A stretch of 64,000 nt of DNA, taken from NCBI GenBank assembly GCA_001791645.1, contig MGFA01000019.1, positions 29,774-93,773 on the forward strand, given 5' to 3'. Made by a program: the position numbers and the translations under genes. Source of the stretch: Candidatus Uhrbacteria bacterium RIFOXYB12_FULL_58_10 (GTDB taxonomy: Bacteria > Patescibacteriota > Patescibacteriia > UBA9934 > GWF2-40-263). Position 1 is the first letter of the stretch; every line of letters begins with the position of its first letter. Below, piece by piece: positions 12,614 to 22,993 of the stretch. A model generated the notes under the pieces. It worked only from the letters and a program-made list of their open reading frames with translations, did not search any database and had not been told where the DNA came from.

Positions 12614-12655
12614 GTTCGGTTTTTGTTCGGTGTATTATACGAACAGATACCGAAC
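12614..12655 (+). promoter_or_regulatory. LexA operator: two direct-repeat boxes GTTC-N7-GTTC (12614-12628) and GAAC-N7-GAAC (12641-12655) flanking TGtATTATA.
   Basis: gttcggtttttgttcgg TGTATTATA cgaacagataccgaacag. The direct-repeat GTTCN7GTTC is the alphaproteobacterial-type LexA box. Located 9-50 nt upstream of the lexA ATG. Confidence 0.6.
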
Positions 12656-12663
12656 AGAAACCT

Positions 12664-13278
12664 ATGAGCCTCACAAAGAAACAAGCTGAAATCCTTGCCT
12701 TCATCAAGGAACATATCGCGGACAAGGACTACGCGCCGAGCTATCGGGAAATCGCCGAGCACTTTGGTCTCTCTTCCCCGGCGACCGTACACCAGCACGT
12801 ACAGGCGCTCGCGGAAAAAGGAATGGTCTCGCTCGGCGAAGACGGAACCGCGCGCTCCATTGAGCTCATTGAAAAACAACCGCTCGACCCGTTCTCCATC
12901 ATGCTGCCGCTTGCCGGGCTCATCACCGCCGGCGTGCCAATCGAGGCAATCGAGGAAAATGAAACGATCGCGGTTCCGGCGCAGTTCGTCGTCGACGGCC
13001 TGAACTCGTACGTACTGCGCGTCAAAGGCCAGTCCATGATCGACGACGGCATTTTCGACGGCGATTACGTCGTCGTCGAACGAAACCCTTCCCCACGCAA
13101 CGGCGAGGTGGTCGTGGCGCTGCTCGACAATGCCTACGCGACGCTCAAGCGCTTCTACCGCGAACCGAACCGCATCCGCCTGCAACCGGCCAACTCCACC
13201 ATGTCTCCCATCTTCGTGAAGGACTGCATCATCCAAGGGACGGTGCGCGCGGTCATCCGAAAGTTTCAAACGGCATAA
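12664..13278 (+). CDS. lexA: LexA repressor.
   Basis: N-terminal wHTH (FIKEHIADKDYAPSYREIAEHFGL). C-terminal S24 peptidase with Ser (GQSMIDDGI) and Lys (TLKRF). Confidence 0.9.
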   Translation: MSLTKKQAEILAFIKEHIADKDYAPSYREIAEHFGLSSPATVHQHVQALAEKGMVSLGEDGTARSIELIEKQPLDPFSIMLPLAGLITAGVPIEAIEENETIAVPAQFVVDGLNSYVLRVKGQSMIDDGIFDGDYVVVERNPSPRNGEVVVALLDNAYATLKRFYREPNRIRLQPANSTMSPIFVKDCIIQGTVRAVIRKFQTA

Positions 13279-15504: not shown

Positions 15505-16647
15505 TCAAACCACGGCCTTGACCGCGTCGGCGACGATGCGCGCAGCCCCGCCCTCCAGCAAGGAGGGCAGAATATGCTCCGCGGTCGGTTCCTCGACCAT
15601 GGCGGCAAGCGCGCGCGCTGATGCGATTCGCATCGCGTTCGTAAAACGAGGTGTCCTCGCTTCCAATACGCCGAGAAACATGCCTGGGTATGCGAGCACG
15701 TTGTTGACCTGATTCGAGTAGTCGCTCCGTCCCGTGGCAACCACGGCTGCGCCCGCCGCCTTCGCGAGGTCGGGCATAATCTCCGGGGTCGGATTTGCCA
15801 TGGCGAACACGATTGCCCCGGGCGCCATCGCGCGTACCATCTCCTCGGTGACGATTCCCGGGGCGCTTACTCCCACGAACACGTCGGCCCCAACCATGGC
15901 CTCCGCGAGCGAACCCGTGCGCCCTTCGGCATTGATGCGCGCGGCCATCTTCGTCTTGGTATCGTTCATCCCGTCTCTCTCCACCGCGATGATGCCCTTT
16001 GAATCGACCATGGCGATATGCGTCGCCCCCGCCTCAAGCAACAGATTCGCCGTGGCGATGCCAGCCGCACCAACTCCGGAGATGACGACCGACGCGGATT
16101 CAAGCGACTTTCCGACGACTTCCAGGGCATTCAGGATTCCGGCCAGGACAACCACGGCCGTGCCATGTTGGTCGTCATGCATCACGGGAACATCGAGCTC
16201 GCGCGAAAGCCGATCCTCGATTTCAAAACACCGCGGCGCGGAAATGTCCTCCAGGTGAATCGCGCCGAATCCGGGAGCGATATTTTTTACGGTCGCGATG
16301 ATCGCCTCGGTATCTTGCGTGGCCAGGCAAATCGGAAACGCGTCGATACCAGCGAACTTCTTATACAAAATGGCCTTCCCTTCCATGACCGGCATGGCGG
16401 CCTCCGGACCAATGTTGCCAAGTCCAAGCACGGCCGACCCGTCCGTCACCACCGCGACGAACCGTCCCTTGATGGTGAGATCGTACGCCAACGACTTGTC
16501 CTTCGCGATTGCCTCACACGGCGCGGCCACGCCCGGCGTGTATGCAATTGACAGATCGTCGCGCGTCTCAAGCGACACGGTCGGCGCAAGTTCCATCTTC
16601 CCTCGCTTCTCGTGGTGCAGCTTCATCGATGCTTCTGCGTAGTTCAT
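15505..16647 (-). CDS. NAD(P)-dependent malic enzyme (small form).
   Basis: Malic_M/NAD-binding motifs (VISGVGAAGIA, GLGNIGP). ATGA start/stop overlap with uvrD at 16644-16647. Confidence 0.85.
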   Translation of the reverse strand: MNYAEASMKLHHEKRGKMELAPTVSLETRDDLSIAYTPGVAAPCEAIAKDKSLAYDLTIKGRFVAVVTDGSAVLGLGNIGPEAAMPVMEGKAILYKKFAGIDAFPICLATQDTEAIIATVKNIAPGFGAIHLEDISAPRCFEIEDRLSRELDVPVMHDDQHGTAVVVLAGILNALEVVGKSLESASVVISGVGAAGIATANLLLEAGATHIAMVDSKGIIAVERDGMNDTKTKMAARINAEGRTGSLAEAMVGADVFVGVSAPGIVTEEMVRAMAPGAIVFAMANPTPEIMPDLAKAAGAAVVATGRSDYSNQVNNVLAYPGMFLGVLEARTPRFTNAMRIASARALAAMVEEPTAEHILPSLLEGGAARIVADAVKAVV

Positions 16648-18743
16648 AGGTCTTCGATATTTCTCAAGAATGATCCGCCGGAGGGCTTCGTCGGCCTGCG
16701 TTCGCCGAGGTCGTCGAGGACGATGGTCGGCTCGTCGTCGCGCCACGCGGATTGAGTGGGACGCTGGCCGTGCGATCCGCCCGACGGTTGCCCGCGCAAG
16801 CGTATCTGCTCGACCAAACTATCGGGCAGTTCCTGAATGAACTGCGATGGCTGGCTGAACATCAGGGTATCACCCCCGCTCGAGATGGGATAGGTCAAAA
16901 ACAGATGGCGGCGGGCGCGCGTGGTCGCGACGTAAAACAGGCGGCGTTCCTCCTCGAGTCCCCCATCTTCGTCAAGCGCGCGCTGGTGCGGGAACTTGCC
17001 GTCCACAAGCCCCATCACGAACACCGCGTCCCACTCAAGGCCTTTCGCCTGATGGATGGTCGAGAGCACCAACCGCTCGCGATCGTCCGTCCCGTTTTCC
17101 CGCGCGGCGCCATAATCCTCGGTCAGCGTCACTTCCTCCAAAAACGTATTCACGTCCACGTACGGCTCCGCGAACAGCGCGAATTGCTCAAGGTCCTCCA
17201 GGCGATCCATGAAATCCGGATATTCCGCCTCGAGGTAATCGCGATACCCGCCCGTGATGACCGCGCGCACCATGTCCGCGGGACGCGTTCCCGAAAGCAT
17301 CTTGCGCAGCATCGACAGGACGGCATCGAATCCGCGGCCGGACTTCCCTTCAATGACGGGAGGCGACGCAACGAGGTCGCCGGCCGATTCAAAGCCGCGC
17401 AGTTTCTCAACGATCCTTCCCGCGGTCACCGTACCGATCCCCGACTGCAGCCCGAGCACGCGCGTCCATGAGAGCACGTCGCGCACGTTTGCCACAAGCT
17501 TCAAGTGCGACACCACGTCCTTGATATGCGCGCGCTGAAAAAACTTCATCCCTCCGCGGTAGTCATACGGGACGTCGCGCTTCGCGAGTTCGAATTCGAG
17601 CGATTGAGACTGAAAGGACCCGCGAAACAGCACGGCGATGTCGCGAAGATCGGTTCCCGCGTCGCGCAGCTGAAGCACTTGCTCGGCAATGTACTGTGCC
17701 TCTTGAAACTGATTGGCGGCCGGAACGAGATTCGGCTTTTCGCACCCCGCGCAAACGGCCCGCAGCTCCTTTTTGAACTGATCGCGATTCCGCCCGATCA
17801 CCGCGTTCGCGAGCGACAAAATCTCAGGACTCGACCGATAGTTTGTGACAAGACGAAACGTTTGCGCTTCCGGATACGTCTTCGGAAAATCCAAAATGTT
17901 GCGGATCTGCGCCGCCCGGAACGAATAGATGCTCTGCGCGTCATCGCCAACCACGAGCACGTTTTGATGTACCGAAGCGAGCTGCCGCACGATGTCGGCC
18001 TGCACGGTGTTGGTGTCCTGGTACTCGTCGACAAGCACGTACTGGAACTGCGTGGCGAGTCGATCGCGCACAGCCGGATTCGTATAGAGCAACTTTCGCA
18101 AAAGCAAAAGCAGATCGTCGAAATCCACAACGTCGGCGTTTGCCTTATGTATCTCGTACAGCTCGGCCATGCGCTCGATGGTCGGGATGAGATTCCAAAA
18201 GCCTGCGTGTTTCCGTTCGACGGCCTCGCGAGTGCTGAGTCCTGAGTTCATCGCGTACGAAATGACGTTGTGCAGGTTCGCGGGCGACGGGAATCGGCGC
18301 GCCGTGGTGTCTACCGCGAGCTCCTTCACGCACGCCTTGATGAGACTGCGCGCATCCTCCTCGTCCATGATGGTGAAGTTCGAGGTGTGCCCGACCGCGC
18401 TCGCGTGCACGCGCAACAAGCGGTTGGCGATCGAGTGAAACGTCCCTCCCCAAAGCCCCTTCGGATACGCGCACAAAAGTCCTTCGACGCGTCCAAGCAT
18501 CTCGCGCGCGGCCTTGTTCGTGAACGTGACGAGCAAAATGTTCTCCGGCGACACGCCGTTTTCAATGAGATACGCCACGCGATACGTGATGGTGCGCGTT
18601 TTTCCGGAACCCGCCCCGGCAAGCACCAGGCATGGCCCATCGCCGTTCAAAACGACGTCTAGCTGTTCCTCGTTCAATTCCTTGCGATAATCGATTTTAC
18701 AACGGCTGGGATCGAACTGATTTTGGAGGACGAACTCTTTCAT
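16644..18743 (-). CDS. uvrD: ATP-dependent DNA helicase UvrD/PcrA.
   Basis: Walker A AGAGSGKT, VDEYQDTN, and other SF1 helicase motifs. Confidence 0.9.
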   Translation of the reverse strand: MKEFVLQNQFDPSRCKIDYRKELNEEQLDVVLNGDGPCLVLAGAGSGKTRTITYRVAYLIENGVSPENILLVTFTNKAAREMLGRVEGLLCAYPKGLWGGTFHSIANRLLRVHASAVGHTSNFTIMDEEDARSLIKACVKELAVDTTARRFPSPANLHNVISYAMNSGLSTREAVERKHAGFWNLIPTIERMAELYEIHKANADVVDFDDLLLLLRKLLYTNPAVRDRLATQFQYVLVDEYQDTNTVQADIVRQLASVHQNVLVVGDDAQSIYSFRAAQIRNILDFPKTYPEAQTFRLVTNYRSSPEILSLANAVIGRNRDQFKKELRAVCAGCEKPNLVPAANQFQEAQYIAEQVLQLRDAGTDLRDIAVLFRGSFQSQSLEFELAKRDVPYDYRGGMKFFQRAHIKDVVSHLKLVANVRDVLSWTRVLGLQSGIGTVTAGRIVEKLRGFESAGDLVASPPVIEGKSGRGFDAVLSMLRKMLSGTRPADMVRAVITGGYRDYLEAEYPDFMDRLEDLEQFALFAEPYVDVNTFLEEVTLTEDYGAARENGTDDRERLVLSTIHQAKGLEWDAVFVMGLVDGKFPHQRALDEDGGLEEERRLFYVATTRARRHLFLTYPISSGGDTLMFSQPSQFIQELPDSLVEQIRLRGQPSGGSHGQRPTQSAWRDDEPTIVLDDLGERRPTKPSGGSFLRNIEDL

Positions 18744-18771
18744 AGCCCCGACAGATTAACACGTTTGGCAC

Positions 18772-18798
18772 AAAAAAAGAACGGTCCAAAGACCGTCA
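18772..18798 (-). terminator. Rho-independent terminator after ORF-B: GACGGTC-ttt-GGACCGT followed by TCTTTTTTTG on the minus strand.
   Basis: Hairpin overlapping the ORF-B stop, then a T7 tract. Confidence 0.55.
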
Positions 18799-19716
18799 GA
18801 GCGGGGCCAGGGCCACAGAGAAATCACGACATGCGCGGGAAACGTCGAGCGGTCCATCGGACATGAGAAGATCCGCGACCGCAGAGAGCTTGGGAACCAC
18901 GGTCGGAACGATGACGGCGCGGCAAAATCCGTCGTCGAGCGGCCTCCCGTTCTCAAACAGCATGCCGCGTCCGCGACAAATCGCGGCGGCGATCCGCGCG
19001 CGGCCCTCGCGATCAGGCTCGGTCTTGCGACGTCTGTGGCGTGCCATTTCGGCGAACGCGCCCTCGAGCGATCGGCGCACGAACGTCATGCGTAGCGATC
19101 GCGCGGCCATGGAGAGACGCGCGGCCGCGTCATCGCCGCGACTCACGCGGAGCGCCGCGATGGCGGCGTCGACGTCGGTCGCGGCGTTCGGCAGCGCGCG
19201 CCGGCTGAACGGGGCCAGCGACACCCCGCGCAAGAACCGCGCGGCACGTTCGAGACGTACGATGTCAGGCTCGCCGGTGACATCGCCGCGAATGACACGA
19301 TGGCATTCGCGCAACGCGTCGAAAAACGCGGCCGCGAACGATTCGAGCGCCCAGGCTTCGCGCTCCACGCCCCCACGGATCAGATCGATCTCGAACGGGC
19401 GCCCGGGCTTCTCGCGCAGCCGCGTGGGGTCCGCCCCAAGCCTCGCGAGCTCGGCCTCGTACCCGTCGCCGACGTGCCCTCCGATCGCACGCAGCGCGTC
19501 GTACAGCCCGCCGTCGAACGCGCGCGCTCTGAGCGGCCCGTCGTTTTCCGGCGCGGCCGCGCACCAGAGCACGGCACCGCTTTCCACGAAGTCAGGCTTG
19601 CCGCGCACCATCATCTCCGGCCCTTGCCGACTGCATACGTACAGACGTTCCTCGCGGATCGGCTTCACGCGAAGCGTCACCGCGTTCCCGCCACGGACAA
19701 GAAACGCTCGTTCCAC
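18796..19716 (-). CDS. Hypothetical protein ORF-B (about 306 aa) with no recognisable domain. Second gene of the GC-rich pair.
   Basis: GTG start at 19716 preceded by GGAGGG with a 4-nt spacer. Very strong GC3 bias. The ORF-track N-terminal 190 aa (S/R-rich) overlap ORF-A and are spurious. Confidence 0.55.
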   Translation of the reverse strand: MERAFLVRGGNAVTLRVKPIREERLYVCSRQGPEMMVRGKPDFVESGAVLWCAAAPENDGPLRARAFDGGLYDALRAIGGHVGDGYEAELARLGADPTRLREKPGRPFEIDLIRGGVEREAWALESFAAAFFDALRECHRVIRGDVTGEPDIVRLERAARFLRGVSLAPFSRRALPNAATDVDAAIAALRVSRGDDAAARLSMAARSLRMTFVRRSLEGAFAEMARHRRRKTEPDREGRARIAAAICRGRGMLFENGRPLDDGFCRAVIVPTVVPKLSAVADLLMSDGPLDVSRACRDFSVALAPL

Positions 19717-19837
19717 GGTCCCTCCGTTCGTGAATCGCGTGGATGCGGCGACGCTACCAGAAAAACCGGCTCGCGTCAACCAATACGTGTCGAAAAGAAA
19801 AAGGCCCCGGGCGAGGCTTGAAAGCCAGGCCGCGGGG

Positions 19838-21064
19838 TCAGTTGACGGACGAGCCGTCGAGATACAGGTCCGAGGCGTCGGCGAGCGCGTCGTAGGCCGC
19901 CCGCGCGTCGAACGCGTCCTCGAGCCCGATCTGCTTGGCGTCCGCGAGGGCGCGAAGCAGATCGTCCAGAAAGCCGGAACGAGAAGGTTCCGCGAGCTGC
20001 GCGAGTGCGACCTCGTTGCAGGCTCGATCTGCGGCGGCCGCGTACTCGCGGCGCTCCTTGGCCTTGATCGGCCGCTTGAACCGCCGCACCATGCCCGCGG
20101 TGACGAGCATCTGTGCGATCTGGCGGTGGATGAGCAGCTTTCCGACCGAACGCCGCGCGGCCATGAGCAACGGGAGCGCGGCACGAAATCTCTCTCTGTC
20201 GTTGAGCGCGACGACGAACGCGTCGAGCTCATCGCGAAGCTGAGCGAGGAGCGGCATTTGCGCGTAAGGCGCCGCGGTGATGAGCGTGAGCTCGTCACTC
20301 GTCCGCGCCGCGCGCTCGGCCAGGCGCTTGGCCTGCGCGAGCTGAAGCGGACGCTTGCGGCCCGGCTTCCACCACCGCGTCATGGAGGCAAGCTCCACGT
20401 CGCAGTCATGGAGACACTTCCAGATGCTCGCGAGCAGCCGGACGATGGCAACCCGCGAGCGGCTGACGCGCTCATCGGCGTTGAGTGCGATACGAAGCTG
20501 CTTGTCAAGCTGCACCGCGGCGCCCCAGTTGGCCATCGCGGCCGCCATGGGGTTGCGCTGCCCCCGCTTGTCGCGCTCGAACTTCGCGCGCGTGGCGTCC
20601 GAGACGGCCCTGCGCTTTCGTTCGCCAGTACTTCCGGTGTTGCGCTCGATCAGGCGATCGAGCCTCCGGACCCGCCTGCGGACCAGCTCCGGGTCGGTGA
20701 GATCGTCGCTGTCGTGCACCGCGTCGAGCGCCCAACGCGCGTCGTTGCGGAACACGCGCAGATCCGGGATCGCTCCGTCGTAGTAGGTGTCGGCGTACAT
20801 CTCGCCGCGGTCGGCGTGCAGCACGCTTCTGTAGATGACGCCGACCGGAAGCGTCTCATGCGACCCTTGGGTCAGCACGATTGCCGCTCCTGGTGGCACG
20901 CTCTCATGCGCGCCCACGTGAGTGTATAGCACGCCTGGCTCGTTGACATCGACGTCGAGGCGCAGCACGCCGAGCTCGGTGGAGTAGAACAGCAGCGACG
21001 CGTGAGCGCGTCCGCGAACCGGACGGCCATCCGTCGCATACGTATGAGTCAGTGGGTTTTCCAA
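19838..21064 (-). CDS. Hypothetical protein ORF-A (408 aa): beta-rich N-terminal ~110 aa, then an Arg-rich helical region. No recognisable domain.
   Basis: TTG start at 21064 preceded by AAGGAGG with a 4-nt spacer and an in-frame stop just upstream. GC about 72-75%. The antisense ORF 18863..20929 is low-complexity junk. Confidence 0.55.
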   Translation of the reverse strand: MENPLTHTYATDGRPVRGRAHASLLFYSTELGVLRLDVDVNEPGVLYTHVGAHESVPPGAAIVLTQGSHETLPVGVIYRSVLHADRGEMYADTYYDGAIPDLRVFRNDARWALDAVHDSDDLTDPELVRRRVRRLDRLIERNTGSTGERKRRAVSDATRAKFERDKRGQRNPMAAAMANWGAAVQLDKQLRIALNADERVSRSRVAIVRLLASIWKCLHDCDVELASMTRWWKPGRKRPLQLAQAKRLAERAARTSDELTLITAAPYAQMPLLAQLRDELDAFVVALNDRERFRAALPLLMAARRSVGKLLIHRQIAQMLVTAGMVRRFKRPIKAKERREYAAAADRACNEVALAQLAEPSRSGFLDDLLRALADAKQIGLEDAFDARAAYDALADASDLYLDGSSVN

Positions 21065-21114
21065 GGAACCTCCTTGCCCTTAGGCGCCCGGAACTGTACA
21101 CTTTTTCGACCGAT

Positions 21115-21594
21115 ATGTCAACCTTCCGACCAAACGCGGCAGTCATCGTGACCGATGGGAACGGGCGCGTCTTGTTGTGCGAGCGGGAGGATTTGCCCGG
21201 CGCCATCCAAACCGTGCAAGGCGGCATCGACGAGGGAGAAACGCCGGAGATGGCCGCGCGGCGCGAGCTGCACGAGGAGATCGGCCTGAGCCCGCCGCAC
21301 TACGAGTTCGTCGCGTCGCTCCCGAACCCCATGCGCTACGAATGGCCGCAGGAGCTCCTCGACAGATGGCGCGCGCAACCGGGCGACCGTTTTTCCGCGT
21401 ACGACGGACAAGAACAGTATTTTTTCCTCGCGCGCGTTTCCCCGGACGCGACGTTCAATCTCGACGCGCATGCCCGCGAATTCTCGCGCTGCTCGTGGGG
21501 CACGCCGCAACAGATGCTGGATGGCGCGTGGGAATACAAGCGGTCCGTTTTAAAATCCGCGCTGGAGCAATTCGGGCTCATCAAAGAAAAATAA
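21115..21594 (+). CDS. rppH: Nudix hydrolase, RppH-like RNA pyrophosphohydrolase.
   Basis: Nudix box GGIDEGETPEMAARRELHEEIGL. Overall similarity to RppH/NudH (FRPNAAVIV..., YFFLARV). Confidence 0.75.
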   Translation: MSTFRPNAAVIVTDGNGRVLLCEREDLPGAIQTVQGGIDEGETPEMAARRELHEEIGLSPPHYEFVASLPNPMRYEWPQELLDRWRAQPGDRFSAYDGQEQYFFLARVSPDATFNLDAHAREFSRCSWGTPQQMLDGAWEYKRSVLKSALEQFGLIKEK

Positions 21595-21958: not shown

Positions 21959-22993
21959 TCAGCTGGGCAGGTCGAGGTCGGCAAGCCTGCCCTCCAGGCA
22001 CGCGAGGAATTCGTTGAACTTGTCTTCTCGTCGCTGGCCGACGCGCGGTCCGTCCGGAAAATCGAGCAGTGCGCCGCCGGAACACTCCTTGGCGCCGGAG
22101 TTCGGACCGAACAAATGGACGAGAATCCTGGGAAGCGGGAGCGCGGGTTCCCTGGTACGCGCGGATACGCGCACGTGATCCCCGACCACGCCGAGCGCGA
22201 GCACGAGGCGCGCGTCCTCATGCCGAACGAGGATGTCCGCGGCGAAGGCGAGATACTCGCCCTCGGTCGGCTCGAGCGCACTCGGCGGGTGTGACAGAAG
22301 AATGTTGCCACGGTACATGGATCGGTGCGTGAGCAGTCTCTGCACGATGGTACACGCGCGTTCAGACATCGGGAACCGAGAGATGCGATGCACCAATTCC
22401 TGGTCGCCCGTGTCCATGAGCCACGCGTACGCATATCGGTCGATCGGACGGGTCCCGACGTAAGTCAGCCCGTCGGTATCCGTGTGGATGCCCATGGCAA
22501 GCAGGGTTGACACGTCACGCCCGAATGTGACGCCGAGACGCGCGCCAAGGCAGGCAACGAGCGAGGAGGCGGCGCCCACCGGCACGACGCAGTGGAACCT
22601 GTCCATCCGCACCTCGCGCGCGTCGCCGTGGTGGTCGATGACGATCGCTGGGTCGAGCGAGCGCTCTCCGAATCGCGCGTCGCTCGTCTTCGACGAGTCG
22701 ACGAGCGCCACCGGGAAGCCCGGATCGATTGCTTCGACCGGACAGATGCGTCCCGCAAGCCCGAACGCCTCCCAGAGCATGATCATCTGCGGATGGCCGA
22801 ATGAGCCGGCGTAAAAGATGCTGGCCTCGACTCCGAGGTGGCAAGCAATCGCCGCAAGCCCGAGCGCTGACCCAATGCCGTCCGGATCCACCTGCGCCAC
22901 CAGAATAACAAGGCGAGGCTGCTGACGGACGAGCATGGAAAACAGCAAGATCTCCTCGTCCTTGAACAAGGACAAGAATGCGCTTTGGAACAT
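21959..22993 (-). CDS. nrnA: DHH/DHHA1 phosphoesterase (NrnA-like nanoRNase/pAp phosphatase).
   Basis: Motifs VDPDGIGSALG, IVIDHHGD and GGGH-like C-terminal domain. Confidence 0.8.
   Translation of the reverse strand: MFQSAFLSLFKDEEILLFSMLVRQQPRLVILVAQVDPDGIGSALGLAAIACHLGVEASIFYAGSFGHPQMIMLWEAFGLAGRICPVEAIDPGFPVALVDSSKTSDARFGERSLDPAIVIDHHGDAREVRMDRFHCVVPVGAASSLVACLGARLGVTFGRDVSTLLAMGIHTDTDGLTYVGTRPIDRYAYAWLMDTGDQELVHRISRFPMSERACTIVQRLLTHRSMYRGNILLSHPPSALEPTEGEYLAFAADILVRHEDARLVLALGVVGDHVRVSARTREPALPLPRILVHLFGPNSGAKECSGGALLDFPDGPRVGQRREDKFNEFLACLEGRLADLDLPS

Follow-up and report, generated by a model that had tools for sequence, protein, structure and literature searches.

What are the two adjacent genes that stand immediately before the helicase gene pcrA/uvrD in Candidatus Uhrbacteria bacterium RIFOXYB12_FULL_58_10, and do they form an uncharacterised toxin-antitoxin or defence module, as an earlier note on this DNA had proposed? 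The DNA analysed here (the window) is a stretch of 64,000 nucleotides (nt) that exact-match hits assign to this candidate-phyla-radiation (Patescibacteria) genome, Uhrbacteria being a group that has not been cultivated. The genes in question are two open reading frames (ORFs) of the minus strand: ORF-A (19838-21064; A2348_05355), which starts with TTG and encodes 408 amino acids, and ORF-B (18796-19716; A2348_05350), which starts with GTG and encodes 306. The earlier note could assign no motif to either protein, and our library scans agree with it: neither has a match in Pfam, NCBIfam, PADLOC or PHROGs, and neither could be placed in a known housekeeping family. By comparing the window with related loci (labelled L001, L002, L003, L006, L007, L009, L010, L011 and L012), we show that the two proteins, as judged from their sequences, are paralogues that lie in tandem, have diverged and belong to one small family. 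Taken as a whole, the analysis makes it probable that this is a lineage-specific core locus of paralogues at uvrD, and no mobile module of the toxin-antitoxin or defence type.

A small protein family restricted to Uhrbacteria

A profile built from ORF-A orthologues only was scored against 1.84e9 representative proteins and retrieved just 37 clusters, the complete members of which are 385-440 amino acids long. Its distant matches carry an N-terminus of the ORF-B type (F/L-x-V-R-G-G-N...) and the motif VAPFSRR(G/A)(F/L)P. Several proteins bridge the two types, matching both a pure ORF-A profile (A1) and a pure ORF-B profile (A3), and it is for this reason that we regard ORF-A and ORF-B as paralogues. 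On E-values scaled for all 1.84e9 sequences of the library, P0027 is matched at 1e-24 by the former and at 1e-36 by the latter, P0033 at 6e-13 and 9e-37, P0034 at 1e-12 and 2e-43, and L001_2 (the second gene of L001) at 2e-8 and 9e-34. Direct alignment of the two narrow profiles with hhalign is weak (probability 5.6%, E 0.007). The family-wide hidden Markov model (HMM) matches ORF-B at 1.5e-42; the match falls into two parts, which cover profile positions 17-104 and 251-400, so that ORF-B is a copy short of about 145 central residues; the missing segment includes the DxxGRxNP motif.

Four motifs recur throughout the family, namely G-A-x-(I/L)-V (beta region), A-x-R-G...Y, D-x-x-G-R-x-N-P and (V/A)-A-P-(Y/F), and in the A-type members, of which ORF-A is a full-length example, the disordered N-terminal tail additionally carries NPxTG as a conserved motif. 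The features that define the new family (a beta domain, the motifs, a C-terminal four-helix bundle and a position upstream of uvrD) are found over the full length of ORF-A and at both ends of ORF-B, its shortened, B-type paralogue. The organism names attached to family members are Uhrbacteria and Patescibacteria only (some of them unclassified Patescibacteria), and pattern scans of GTDB and of metagenomes added only two further Uhrbacteria species, plus duplicates. This is an orphan family restricted to Uhrbacteria, and its novelty is that of a protein family only. Its ancestral state appears to be a single gene, encoding about 390-420 amino acids, placed immediately before the gene of the PcrA/UvrD helicase and read in the same direction. 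This gene was duplicated in some lineages, and in the clade of the window the uvrD-proximal copy (ORF-B) has lost its roughly 145 central residues.

A fixed position upstream of uvrD

The window and the nine related loci are independent and have downstream sequence, and in 10 out of 10 one or two family genes immediately precede a gene for a PcrA/UvrD-type helicase and share its orientation. In the window, this invariant downstream neighbour (16644-18743, minus strand) encodes 699 amino acids, of which residues 21-649 align to positions 3-641 of the 725 in the PcrA/UvrD model (530 bits), that is, over most of its length. The conserved block consists of the family gene or genes, uvrD, (malic enzyme), a small RskA-like protein, dinB, a gene of 82 amino acids and lexA; the succession from the family through uvrD and dinB to lexA is intact in L009, though everything upstream of it differs there. 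A single family copy is present in L006, L010, L011 and L012. The A-type gene precedes the B-type gene in the window, L001 and L003, and the order is reversed in L007 and probably in L002. Only in the clade of the window are DHH and Nudix genes found between DUF2207 and the family. Searches of phage, plasmid and IMG/VR collections returned no relatives of the family. The earlier note had named a comparison of gene neighbourhoods beforehand as the test that could tell against an accessory system, and this comparison shows the genes to be syntenic in every related genome recovered, a result that, on the note's own terms, refutes the toxin-antitoxin or defence reading.

The genes of the block differ widely in their rate of change. 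Between the window and L001, protein identity is 94% for LexA, 81% for UvrD, 79% for DinB, 77% for the malic enzyme, 69% for DHH, 68% for Nudix, 63% for ORF-A and 54% for the RskA-like protein, and for ORF-B it is 31% overall and 40% over the best segment of 124 residues. In deeper comparisons, UvrD retains about 65% identity and the family descends to 20-30%. The family is among the fastest-evolving genes of the block.

The neighbours named in the earlier note were largely recognised again: the Nudix protein is RppH-like, with a score below cutoff, the helicase is of the PcrA/UvrD type, and the DHH-like gene (21959-22993, minus strand) has a sub-threshold DHH match (23.6 bits versus a cutoff of 28.1), whereas the supposed zinc ribbon gene has no family match. 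The DHH-like gene is itself rich in guanine plus cytosine (GC), with 64% GC and a GC content at third codon positions (GC3) of 0.79, and is among the most GC-rich genes of the locus in L001 and L003.

Start codons and transcription signals

We consider ORF-A and ORF-B to be real genes because the GC content of their three codon positions is of the coding type on the minus strand (0.72/0.47/0.83 for ORF-A and 0.75/0.54/0.79 for ORF-B), both have homologues at 45-67% identity (10 for ORF-A, 6 for ORF-B), and the AlphaFold2 (AF2) models of both include confident C-terminal bundles. The two co-oriented frames thus lie where the earlier note had placed them, and its non-ATG starts are backed by the conserved N-termini of homologues in both proteins. 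In the frame of ORF-A no start codon stands between the preceding stop codon and the TTG, which is followed by a conserved N-terminal motif, M-x-N-P-x-T-x-T (NPxTxT at residues 3-8). Five ORF-B homologues of 305-311 amino acids share the N-terminus M-E/D-R-x-F-L-V-R-G, which begins at the same point as the GTG start. The strong Shine-Dalgarno sequences were also recovered on the minus strand, AAGGAGG at 21069-21075, 4 nt before the TTG, and GGAGGG at 19720-19725, 3 nt before the GTG. The deposited ORF-B protein has 327 amino acids and starts 21 codons upstream of the homologue-supported start (window 19717-19779); this start is probably too far upstream, and the deposited model probably begins at a TTG that forms the first three letters of TTGACG, the conserved -35 box of the ORF-B promoter-like site. 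On the opposite strand within ORF-A, Rfam gave one sub-threshold match to "gyrA RNA" (19890-19979, plus strand; 21.5 bits versus a gathering score of 45, E 0.07), which we take as chance.

The earlier note had described the two genes as an operon closed by a terminator before uvrD. The terminator was found, as an intrinsic-terminator-like hairpin with a U-tract after ORF-B, just before uvrD (18772-18797, minus strand). The operon itself, however, does not hold up. The spacer of 121 nt between the genes carries a hairpin with a U-tract directly after ORF-A (19793-19837, minus strand; -22.4 kcal/mol, z = -2.9), which resembles an intrinsic terminator, and a promoter-like site for ORF-B (19751-19779, minus strand; TTGACG-17-TAGCGT). 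Both are conserved in two other genomes: a hairpin with a T-run, its stem differing in sequence, stands at the equivalent place after ORF-A in L001 and L003, and the TTGAC and GGTAGCGT elements of the promoter-like site are invariant across the window, L001 and L003. With a conserved terminator-like hairpin and a conserved promoter-like site between them, such signals being called here from consensus and conservation, ORF-A and ORF-B look like separate transcription units, between which read-through is possible, and not like a tight operon. The fallback of the earlier note, a lineage-specific operon, accordingly keeps its lineage specificity and loses its operon.

ORF-A, like ORF-B, has a promoter-like site of its own, of the sigma-70 type (21093-21121, minus strand; TTGACA-17-TACAGT), and this site extends over the beginning of the divergent Nudix gene. 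The location of the site and its -35 box are kept in L001, L003 and L002, in the last case even though the upstream gene there is a co-oriented paralogue and not the divergent Nudix. The distance from ORF-A to the Nudix gene (RppH-like; probable ATG at 21115) is about 50 nt (21065-21121), with the promoter-like site overlapping the first Nudix codons, and the same close divergent arrangement is seen in L001 and L003.

GC enrichment of the family genes

ORF-A (67.3% GC) and ORF-B (68.9%) are the two most GC-rich genes of the window, the median of which is about 58.5%, and the maximum of any 200-nt segment is 74%. The earlier note was therefore right to rank this stretch highest, but its estimate of about 72-77% for the local GC was too high. 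We computed the GC content expected from amino-acid composition with the window's own codon usage (reference gene set, GC 0.589). For ORF-A the expected value is 0.630 versus 0.675 observed, so that composition explains about half of the excess, and for ORF-B it is 0.661 versus 0.691, composition explaining about 70%. The residual GC3 excess is common to the neighbouring DHH, Nudix and uvrD genes. The elevated GC is partly a matter of Ala/Arg/Gly-rich composition and partly a regional excess of GC3.

Two-copy genomes of lower GC show a locus-specific excess, with the GC3 of the family genes exceeding that of their neighbours by +0.2 to +0.36: 0.89 and 0.95 versus a background of about 0.65 in L007, 0.78 and 0.92 versus about 0.55 in L009, and 0.69 and 0.78 versus about 0.47 in L002. 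The corresponding islands extend over 7411-11263 in L007, 10001-12634 in L009 and 264-2888 in L002. In single-copy genomes the excess is small (+0.11 in L010 and +0.05 in L012) or absent (L006 and L011). In L007, an adjoining uncharacterised gene of 378 amino acids, which is not a family member, has a GC3 of 0.92. Translational selection is an unlikely cause of the high GC3, as ribosomal-protein genes in L009 are at background GC3. At the divergences seen within the family (20-60% protein identity), synonymous sites are expected to be saturated, and the GC3 bias would therefore have to be actively maintained. Our favoured conjecture is that a recombination-prone locus with GC-biased conversion lies behind the excess.

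Alternative explanations of the locus

The proposal that the two genes form a toxin-antitoxin or anti-phage defence module, which might act with the adjacent UvrD-like helicase as in Gabija, has an understandable origin: two adjacent unassigned genes of atypical GC stand beside a helicase of the UvrD family for which GajB HMMs give a score, their copy number varies from one to two, and their sequences diverge fast. We nevertheless consider it extremely unlikely. The locus is fixed in all relatives, ORF-A and ORF-B are paralogues of each other and not a toxin with its antidote, some genomes carry a single copy, and there is no PADLOC or PHROGs match. Type II toxin-antitoxin pairs are likewise two adjacent co-oriented genes of unassigned function, but there one expects a tight, co-transcribed bicistron of small genes that overlap or are separated by a few nt, with recognisable toxin or antitoxin domains and unrelated partners, in a patchy and mobile distribution. 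Here the proteins are large (408 and 306 amino acids) and mutually paralogous, lack Pfam, NCBIfam and PADLOC matches, have a 121-nt spacer with a terminator and a promoter between their genes, sometimes occur singly, and occupy the same locus in 10 of 10 cases, with no plasmid, phage or viral relatives. The likeness to Gabija (GajA plus GajB) is limited to an unassigned gene adjoining a UvrD-family helicase. That helicase aligns with PcrA/UvrD over most of its length and belongs to a conserved housekeeping block, at a fixed and not a variable locus; no GajA-like OLD/TOPRIM partner was present among the neighbouring proteins scanned; and ORF-A, ORF-B and six relatives are without a PADLOC match. 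Nor is the location that of a defence island: the family is consistently flanked by DUF2207 (or DHH/Nudix) and by uvrD, within a housekeeping region that is collinear.

The GC enrichment could also be taken to mark a recent foreign island or an assembly chimera, since ORF-A and ORF-B make up the highest-GC stretch of the window and since the GC3 of the family lies far above that of its neighbours in the lower-GC loci L002, L007 and L009. This, too, seems very unlikely to us. Independent assemblies from different samples show the same genes in the same position and the same gene order, which makes a chimera implausible; the divergence of the orthologues parallels that of neighbours such as Nudix, DHH and DUF2207; much of the excess in the window is due to amino-acid composition; no homologue was retrieved outside syntenic loci of the Uhrbacteria type, all named members being Uhrbacteria or Patescibacteria; and at 20-60% protein identity a donor composition should already have decayed. 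The same high GC3 bears on a further possibility, namely that a plus-strand ORF of 688 amino acids (18863-20929) is the real gene and ORF-A and ORF-B are artefacts. This long antisense frame does exist and overlaps both genes, and similar frames occur in the GC-rich relatives L001 and L003; but high GC3 on one strand mechanically strips stops from the codon-aligned antisense frame, the codon-position GC of the plus-strand frame is less coding-like, and in the lower-GC L002 the frame is closed, the longest there having 241 codons. It is the minus-strand proteins that have conserved homologues, starts, Shine-Dalgarno sites and confidently predicted folds. We reject the antisense frame of 688 codons as a by-product of high GC3 that is not conserved in L002, and give it a negligible chance of being the gene.

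Predicted structure and possible functions

Neither ORF-A nor ORF-B has a recognisable catalytic motif, and neither contains a hydrophobic segment, a transmembrane segment or a signal peptide; both are predicted to be soluble. They are basic proteins (isoelectric point 9.4-9.6), with 12-15% Arg and 15% Ala. The AF2 models have a mean predicted local distance difference test (pLDDT) score of 74 for ORF-A and 76 for ORF-B, with the C-terminal bundles being confident. The predicted layout consists of a short disordered N-terminal tail, which in ORF-A bears the NPxTG motif, a small beta domain (about residues 21-78 in ORF-A) and helical domains of the four-helix-bundle type. For ORF-A the earlier note had the right order, beta and then helical, but made the beta domain too long at about 110 amino acids; ORF-B, which it described as mostly helical, does contain a helical bundle, but an N-terminal beta region is predicted there as well, with low confidence.

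A Pfam scan of 36 family members gave nothing usable, including no match to CarD_TRCF_RID, PDB sequence searches with three profiles gave no match, and the score of YfdX (PF10938) was not above the Pfam gathering threshold. The nearest structural likenesses are generic four-helix bundles: cytochrome b562, HPt/CheA-P1, PsbQ, Borrelia FbpA/B/C, the MnmE helical domain and YfdX. Among adaptors of the transcription/repair interface, the family may resemble CarD/CdnL, the RID of Mfd and the C-terminal Tudor domain of PcrA/UvrD, as proteins that combine a small beta domain with a helical part; the order (small N-terminal beta, then helical), the basic character and the place beside pcrA/uvrD are the same. 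ORF-A and ORF-B differ from these in having no Pfam match, in being two to three times larger, and in having a beta fold that the searches used leave unclassified.

The helicase of these genomes has a distinctive tail, which we compared in the window, L001, L002, L006, L007, L009, L010 and L011. PcrA/UvrD models align only up to about residue 650-667 of these proteins. The C-terminus that follows (about 50 codons; window 16647-16800, minus strand) is a variable low-complexity linker in which two short motifs are conserved, PTIVLDDxGE and, at the very end, one similar to FLRxIxEL (LLR in L006 and L011), and no Tudor motif of the FGxG type is visible in the tails of these genomes. The two conserved motifs may be partner-docking peptides.

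We tentatively suggest, while thinking it rather doubtful, that the family proteins are non-enzymatic basic adaptors or scaffolds, maybe acting as an A/B heteromer in genomes with two copies, whose partners would be nucleic acid, PcrA/UvrD or both; docking of the C-terminal motifs of UvrD is one conceivable way. A more specific form of this idea, which we hold to be improbable, makes the family an Uhrbacteria-specific partner of PcrA/UvrD: the bundles would dock the tail motifs, and the beta domain and basic surface would supply in trans the adaptor function that UvrD lacks, given that no canonical Tudor-like C-terminal motif is seen in it. Duplications, reversed A/B order, fast divergence and GC3 excess would in that case mark a recombination-prone and possibly conflict-driven locus. 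A literature search found no paper combining Uhrbacteria and UvrD.

A link with DNA repair could also have shown itself in regulation. From the lexA promoters of five genomes we read a local LexA operator, GAAC-N7-GAAC, which has the same form as the alphaproteobacterial SOS box GTTC-N7-GTTC. In the window, two such direct-repeat boxes (CGAACA-N5-CGAAC) lie on either side of the -10 element in the lexA promoter (12614-12655; lexA at 12664-13278, plus strand), and the equivalent boxes lie at 13784-13825 in L001, 17909-17950 in L007, 16400-16454 in L006 and 18413-18454 in L009. They are presumed to be the LexA operator of an operon comprising lexA, the 82-amino-acid gene and dinB. The SOS response of Patescibacteria is reportedly the subject of a 2017 paper by Sanchez-Osuna and co-workers. 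Beside lexA, L009 (17999-18370) and L010 (14923-15288) have a small gene with 23S_rRNA_IVP/bAvd matches, which is absent from the lexA region of the window; in L009, this bAvd-type gene is near an uncharacterised gene of 621 amino acids and a Y1 transposase. Proteins of the bAvd type serve diversity-generating retroelements as accessory proteins.

Several observations weigh against a working partnership with UvrD or DNA. There is no GAAC-N7-GAAC box upstream of ORF-A, ORF-B or uvrD, so that nothing points to SOS control of these genes. Model confidence is low for the beta domains and for the middle of ORF-A, and the structural matches are generic helical bundles only. Synteny in these genomes extends over the entire region (PGK-eno-iPGM ... 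YceG-DUF2207-family-uvrD-...-lexA-metK), and the adjacency of the family to uvrD may be historical and not functional, a single rearranged locus (L009) separating the two possibilities. Somewhat short of an even chance, in our estimate, is that the family is a fast-evolving, lineage-specific cytoplasmic protein that stands next to uvrD only by inherited gene order and has a structural, regulatory or symbiosis-related role apart from UvrD and DNA repair. The collinearity of the whole 20-kb neighbourhood, the possession by each gene of its own promoter and terminator, the missing LexA box, and a divergence faster than that of the neighbours (20-30% identity, versus about 65% for UvrD) are all as such a history would have them. 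It accounts less well for the block of family, uvrD, dinB and lexA staying together in L009 despite a different upstream region, for the basic, Arg-rich nature of the proteins, which suits nucleic-acid binding, and for the conserved terminal peptide motifs of this lineage's UvrD, which suggest a partner.

These results remove a false lead towards a defence or toxin-antitoxin system and define in its place a small orphan family of Uhrbacteria, with its architecture, motifs, two subtypes, copy-number variation and strict positional link to pcrA/uvrD. Its interest is modest, since uncharacterised families confined to one lineage are a common feature of candidate-phyla-radiation genomes; the parts worth following are the GC3 island and the possible link to UvrD. 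The locus-specific GC3 excess could be a useful natural case in which to study bacterial GC enrichment driven by recombination or by selection. Should the link to UvrD prove functional, the family would represent a lineage-specific helicase accessory factor, and would bear on how repair is organised in bacteria with reduced genomes that lack many of the canonical partners.

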